From assembly GCF_003790525.1 (NCBI RefSeq), contig NZ_CP033635.1: a DNA stretch of 64,000 nt; one strand, written 5' to 3'. Positions 54,290 to 55,436 of the stretch are shown here, piece by piece. Position 1 is the first letter of the stretch. Each line of letters begins with the position of its first letter. This DNA comes from Escherichia coli. Its GTDB lineage: Bacteria; Pseudomonadota; Gammaproteobacteria; Enterobacterales; Enterobacteriaceae. The translations under genes and the position numbers were made by a program. The notes beneath the pieces are model-generated. The model had not been told where the DNA came from. It saw nothing but the letters and a program-made list of their open reading frames with translations, and did no database searches.

Positions 54290-55436
54290 CATGCCACCTC
54301 CTGAGTCAGCGCAGGGAGATGGGCGCGGCACTGCATCAGTGGTTGAATGCGCTCGCCGAAGTTTTCGATTCCCGACAGAAAATCATCGAAGGTCAACAGC
54401 ACGCCTTCGGCACCAGGCACGGTTGCGACTTCATCTAACATGCGCGCGACACTGGCGTAAGAACCGACTAACGTCCCCATATTGATGTTTACCGCCGAAG
54501 TGGGATCGGCCATCTGACGGACGTTGGTGTCTGTACCGGAGCGGGTATCTTTCTGACTTTGTTCGGTTAGCCAGCTTAAGGCCTCTTCATCCGCGCCCGC
54601 TTTGTAGTGTTCCCATTTTGCACGAGCGGCATCGTCGGTTTCGTCGGCAATCACCATAAACAACACATAAGAGCCAACGTCGCGTCCGGTTTGCTCTGCG
54701 GCCTGTTTCATCCGCGCAGCGGTCGGGGCGAAAGCCGTGGGTGTATTTACGCCTTTGCCGAAACAGAAGTTAAATCGGCATACCGGGCGGAGAACGCCAT
54801 GCCAGCGTCGCTTTGCCCGGCGCAGATCACTTTCATGGGGACACTCGGTTGCGGACTGACGCGACAATCATCCATAGTGAAAAAATCGCCTTTAAAATCG
54901 CTTTTCCCCGAGCCCCACAGGTCGCGCAGCACCTGAACATATTCGGTGAGATAGTCGTAACGACGGGAGAAATAGTCATCGCCAGGCCAGATCCCCATCT
55001 GCTCATACTCGGGCTTTTGCCAGCCAGTCACGAGGTTGACGCCAAAACGCCCGCCAGAGATGGAGTCGATGGTTGCGGCCATACGGGCGACGATTGCCGG
55101 AGGTAACGTTAAGGTGGCAGCTGTCGCGTAAATCTGAATGCGTGAGGTCACGGCTGCCAGACCCGCCATCAAGGTGAACGACTCAAGGTTGTGATCCCAG
55201 AACTCAGTTTTGCCGCCAAAGCCACGCAGTTTGATCATCGACAGGGCGAAGTCGAAATGGTAGTGCTCCGCTTTTTGCACAATGGCTTTATTCAGTTCAA
55301 AGGTCGGCATGTACTGCGGCGCGTGGGTCGAAATGAGCCAGCCGTTGTTGCCAATAGGTACGAATACGCCAATTTTCATCATCAACCTCTCTTCGTCTCG
55401 TAAAGTGAAAGTCAGACGGGGCGCTGCATCCTGCAT
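54289..55436 (-). pseudogene. rutA: rutA (pyrimidine monooxygenase), disrupted by a 1-nt frameshift
   Basis: Two overlapping minus-strand ORFs (54747..55469 and 54289..54867) together cover full-length RutA. Frame changes at ...ARYAD|, where the sequence reads gcc gat tta act tct; inserting one T (gat ttt aac ttc tgt) restores ...[13 protein letters not shown].... Span is 1148 nt, one short of a multiple of 3. Confidence 0.8.

Follow-up and report, generated by a model that had tools for sequence, protein, structure and literature searches.

The rutA gene reads as a frameshifted pseudogene in the consensus sequence of the window (the whole 64,000-base stretch of Escherichia coli DNA analysed here). 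We consider it probable that this reflects a genuine, very recent and strain-private –1 frameshift, that the product is inactive, and that the Rut pathway is blocked at its first step. At plus-strand positions 54772-54774 the window has AAA, whereas close relatives have AAAA in a base-by-base comparison. On the coding strand, GAT TTT AAC of the relatives is replaced by GAT TTA AC (rutA nt 603-606, codon F203, equivalent to F222 in UniProt numbering). The 35-mer of the deletion allele is TATGCCGATTTAACTTCTGTTTCGGCAAAGGCGTA. A single full-length RutA homologue aligns across the locus in two frames that meet at a 1-nt indel, the pattern of a frameshifted pseudogene. The overlapping minus-strand ORFs 54747..55469 and 54289..54867 correspond to the N- and C-terminal parts of RutA, and their overlap is ~120 nt. 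Features of the locus are listed in Table 1.

An initial annotation had read TAAATC at plus-strand positions 54771..54776 and proposed a single-base deletion in rutA. Re-reading of the sequence gives the same hexamer, and in an exact comparison the only gap in the window relative to NZ_CP147535.1 falls here. The split of rutA over two overlapping ORFs, described in the same annotation, is reflected in the way the TIGR03612 profile divides between the two frames. One extra T was said to restore the frame: the stretch repaired in this way matches WP_012311618.1 and crystallised RutA, and the reference RutA sequence that the annotation gave for the site agrees with both. The annotation had allowed for two causes, a genuine loss-of-function allele and an assembly or sequencing error. 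It had also predicted termination after about 240 residues with a short out-of-frame tail. The tail is present, but the length counts from an upstream TTG and becomes 210 aa from the RefSeq start. Finally, the view of the rut operon as otherwise complete holds, rutB-G and rutR being base-identical to the annotated intact genes of E. coli GN03551.

Table 1. Coordinates of the rutA lesion, the predicted rutA fragments and the neighbouring rut genes in the window
Feature	Position	Strand	Basis or remark
Deletion site, A3 on plus / T3 on coding strand versus A4/T4 in relatives	54772..54774	-	Sole gap in 64 kb; first amino acid difference at residue 203, F->L
rutA, pseudogene in the consensus, 1091 nt versus 1092, curated ATG to original TGA	54289..55379	-	Coordinates from GN03551 annotation; TIGR03612 in two frames
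Premature TAA stop, 8 codons past the frameshift, tail LTSVSAKA	54747..54749	-	Translation
Translatable N-terminal fragment, 210 aa	54747..55379	-	TIGR03612 positions 1-205, 438.1 bits
Out-of-frame C-terminal remnant, native residues 204-363	54292..54771	-	TIGR03612 positions 203-354, 272.4 bits
rutB, intact	53597..54289	-	Base-identical to GN03551
rutC, intact, base-identical to relatives	53199-53585	-	
rutD, intact, base-identical to relatives	52379-53191	-	
rutE, intact, base-identical to relatives	51792-52382	-	
rutF, intact, base-identical to relatives	51287-51781	-	
rutG, intact, base-identical to relatives	49938-51266	-	
rutR, divergent TetR-family regulator, intact	55667..56305	+	Base-identical to GN03551

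Translated from the curated ATG (55379), the predicted product has 202 native and 8 out-of-frame residues, compared with 363 aa for the intact protein; from a UniProt-style start (55436) it would be 229 aa long. TIGR03612 (NCBIfam, 'pyrimidine utilization protein A') has a profile length of 355 and a curated equivalog cut-off of 498.3 bits, which neither RutA fragment reaches alone. Judged from its sequence, the locus is rutA by descent, yet not an intact TIGR03612 member. It lies in the orthologous position as the first gene of rutABCDEFG, divergent from rutR, with the gene order of SMS-3-5 and GN03551 and with base-identical flanks. In place of an uninterrupted ORF of ~363 aa with all active-site residues, a stop follows after 210 codons. 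The repaired translation is identical to WP_012311618.1 (SMS-3-5, GN03551) and aligns end to end with crystallised K-12 RutA (6SGG, 6SGL, 5WAN), 4 of the 363 positions being different. Compared with the E. coli RutA represented by TIGR03612 and by these PDB entries, the window carries the same DNA as the rutA of its lineage bar one base, in the same operon context; in contrast to intact RutA, its frame breaks at codon 203. Numbering in the structure literature follows UniProt and equals the 363-aa numbering plus 19, as checked against the alignment with the crystallised protein. The active-site residues of RutA are Thr105, Asn134, Trp139 and Glu292 in UniProt numbering (PMC10005588). The first three fall in the retained part and Glu292 (E273 in the 363-aa numbering) in the lost part, which amounts to 44% of the protein.

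We propose that one T was lost from the T4 run, probably by replication slippage, and that the base is truly missing in the organism. Translation would leave the RutA frame at codon 203 and halt 8 codons later. The resulting 210-aa fragment, lacking 161 C-terminal residues including Glu292, should be inactive. Because a truncated TIM-barrel luciferase-like FMN monooxygenase should not function, the pathway would be blocked at its entry. RutA opens the uracil ring with RutF, and the products are processed by RutB-E (PMC8113886); the conversion of uracil through ureidoacrylate to NH3, CO2 and 3-hydroxypropionate would stop at the first, ring-opening step. At 23 C, uridine can serve wild-type K-12 as its only source of nitrogen (PMC8113886). 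Provided that the deletion is real, RutA activity would be lost, the isolate would be unable to use uracil or uridine nitrogen through the Rut pathway, and rutA would have to be annotated as a pseudogene.

The lesion may also affect the genes downstream. The rutB ATG overlaps the original rutA TGA by one base (TGATG), and the premature rutA stop is now located 457 nt upstream of rutB. Ribosomes ending at this distance would lose the TGATG stop/start coupling, which plausibly lowers rutB-G expression. The 455 nt scanned after the premature stop contain 28% C and 29% G. Since this untranslated stretch has no C-over-G bias, polarity on rutB-G is something we infer. Lesions in rutC and rutD have been reported as polar (PMC8113886), and this lends some support to polarity of the rutA lesion.

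The reference for these comparisons was E. coli GN03551 (NZ_CP147535.1), which belongs to the SMS-3-5 lineage and was compared with the window base by base over all 64,000 bases. Only three differences were found: an SNP at 17031, an SNP at 49094 and the one missing base at 54772-54774. The rut locus is 99.9% identical to that of E. coli SMS-3-5 and ~20 other complete genomes, each of which spans 1302 bases where the window spans 1301; for a 25-kb segment, the best-matching genomes cover 25001 bases versus 25000 in the window. No RefSeq complete genome contains the exact window sequence. At 17031, within helD, the window has the species-wide state (5207 exact matches), and the difference is therefore private to GN03551, whose HelD has an accession of its own, WP_338810591.1. 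The T at 49094, in contrast, is private to the window: it is a synonymous ATT->ATA (Ile) change in wrbA codon 72 on the minus strand and occurs in 0 of 5426 complete genomes. It lies 5.7 kb from the rutA deletion. Relative to its lineage the window has two private changes, the synonymous SNP and the one-base deletion. The private wrbA change marks the strain, as far as its sequence goes, as a distinct isolate; since it matches no complete genome, no closer relative was available for comparison. One private SNP per 30-64 kb is a divergence typical of relatives in this clade.

We next consider how widespread the deletion allele is. Junction probes for megablast were designed such that the deletion falls inside every 28-mer seed, which prevents wild-type alleles from initiating an alignment. 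None of the 5426 complete E. coli genomes gave a hit to the deletion junction with these probes. As controls, the wild-type junction was detected with F203 encoded by TTT in 1366 genomes and by TTC in 4028, which makes 5394 of the 5426 demonstrably intact at this site. A run of four T is found only in haplotypes with TTT, ~25% of complete genomes, the window lineage among them. A comparison with other isolates of the lineage, suggested in the initial annotation, found the deletion in none of the 72 records with at least 99% identity, and metagenome contigs gave no match to the junction. One junction hit among species-representative genomes came from a Gastranaerophilales MAG of 30% GC without similarity to rutA and was dismissed as a chance match. 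We also looked up nine start-codon variants of both RutA fragments by exact search in a 15-billion-protein collection. Only the 210-aa form was found, once, in a Logan contig of 1167 b from SRR10211332. This contig has the same T4->T3 change in a different haplotype, along with clustered mismatches and, within 200 nt, two additional 1-nt deletions. Because of the other haplotype and the two additional deletions we regard it as noise and rejected it as independent support. Contigs with C-terminal fragments of 140 and 122 aa were set aside as well, their rutA being broken at other positions, and several further contigs in which rutA is split belong to assemblies that are visibly error-prone. One of these, contig CDDKRI010000009.1 of GCA_974496745.1, carries 9 indels in 6.4 kb around the rut operon, and putA, rutR and rutA are split by them; by its sequence, GCA_974496745.1 is an error-prone assembly that yields spurious pseudogenes.

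Given that a one-base homopolymer deletion is the commonest type of consensus error, there is an appreciable chance, short of even, that the missing base arose in sequencing, assembly or polishing, in which case the true product would be WP_012311618.1, the Rut pathway would work, and the gene should be repaired to that sequence. Absence of the allele from every other genome of the lineage and the species, identity of the rest of the operon to functional relatives, and the split rutA of error-laden public assemblies such as GCA_974496745.1 are what one would expect of such an error, and the noisy SRR10211332 contig shows the same T4->T3 change accompanied by two more deletions. However, no indel other than the rutA deletion separates these 64,000 bases from a near-identical complete genome. 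The other 883 homopolymers of at least 4 nt all agree with the reference, including the longer and more error-prone runs (253 of at least 5 nt, 79 of at least 6 nt and 18 of 7-8 nt), and so do two runs within rutA, a T6 and an A5. With no other indel and full agreement of these 883 runs, the window has no systematic signature of sequencing error. A 4-nt run is also short for a platform homopolymer error, and such errors would be rare if the source were a short-read assembly. We therefore prefer a genuine strain-private frameshift. On the other side, secondary decay of the rut operon, which would have pointed to an inherited lesion, is not visible in the window.

The frameshift could in principle be tolerated through programmed –1 frameshifting, transcriptional slippage or the reassembly of separately made fragments into an active enzyme. 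A –1 shift anywhere within the ~120 nt ORF overlap would indeed give a near-native RutA. However, a slippery heptamer of the X XXY YYZ type, as found in –1 frameshift genes of the dnaX and IS-transposase kind, is absent from the overlap zone 54875..54747, and with three T the run at the site falls well below the length at which transcription slips. Candidate restart codons at 54867, 54711, 54666 and 54657 are not preceded by a Shine-Dalgarno motif, and a restart at 54711, the first ATG inside the gene, would leave out residues 203-223. Programmed frameshifts are conserved among relatives, but the two-frame arrangement occurs in 0 genomes while a single-frame rutA occurs in 5394. With neither heptamer, long run, Shine-Dalgarno motif nor conservation, recoding and fragment complementation are without support, and we consider them highly improbable.

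Other rutA losses are known in E. coli, and that they arise naturally speaks for a real lesion here. An allele with a stop at W155 accounts for 375 indexed blocks of the collection, and one of its TGA haplotypes is present in 2 complete genomes; in NZ_CP027461.1 the gene is annotated by PGAP as a pseudogene with an 'internal stop'. The stop codon is TGA in two backgrounds (12 and 20 mismatches to the window lineage) and TAG in another, and these sequences suggest that nonsense mutations at this codon arose independently or were passed on by recombination. A T6->T7 insertion at nt 495 of rutA (GCA_012928655.1) predicts a 170-aa product as in E. coli UMNF18 and is indexed in 124 blocks; a 40-mer probe for this allele had no match in complete genomes, where the BLAST low-complexity filter may have masked T7. 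The downstream rut genes are intact in both. Like the window, these alleles combine a point lesion in the first gene with an intact rutR and intact genes from rutB onward, and T6->T7 resembles the window allele in being a homopolymer slippage. They differ in lying at other positions and in being reproduced in many independent assemblies, which makes them certainly real and inherited, whereas the window allele is confined to this sequence. In Shigella flexneri serotype 6 the whole rut operon, rutA-G, is missing (PMC11708030), and there are entries of truncated RutA for S. sonnei, S. boydii and S. flexneri. Pyrimidine catabolism is lost in these host-associated Escherichia/Shigella lineages as it would be in the window strain. 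However, the loss in Shigella is a lineage-wide deletion or decay, while in the window it concerns a single base in one strain with all else intact.

Whether such cases point to selection is a more speculative matter. Later Rut intermediates are reportedly toxic. In that case a knock-out of rutA would be the only safe means of shutting the pathway down, and selection in host-associated E. coli might repeatedly favour rutA-specific knock-outs, namely W155stop, T6->T7 and T4->T3. The TTT codon at F203 creates the T4 run and would predispose that haplotype group to the T4->T3 route. It is nevertheless unlikely that the deletion is both real and a further, independent instance in which the first Rut enzyme was preferentially inactivated. 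The event is of an ordinary kind, already known and routinely flagged by annotation pipelines, and has little significance beyond annotation and strain phenotype. A mild population-genetic angle is the recurrence in E. coli of point lesions that inactivate rutA and leave the genes downstream intact.

Two further observations concern sequence variation outside the lesion. The Arg codon four positions before F203, within the SARYADF motif, is CAG (Gln) and not CGG (Arg) in some E. coli haplotypes; this non-synonymous variant was seen next to the lesion site in five of the compared sequences, including GCA_974496745.1. A second gene with a disturbed frame in the window is torS (35037..37780, minus strand). 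With 2744 nt it lacks one base for a whole number of codons, and it is open for 910 codons, so its shift sits near the 3' end. Both the SMS-3-5 and the GN03551 annotation label the gene 'frameshifted', and the window is base-identical there. By sequence comparison, torS is a lineage-wide pseudogene or C-terminal variant and not a strain-private one.
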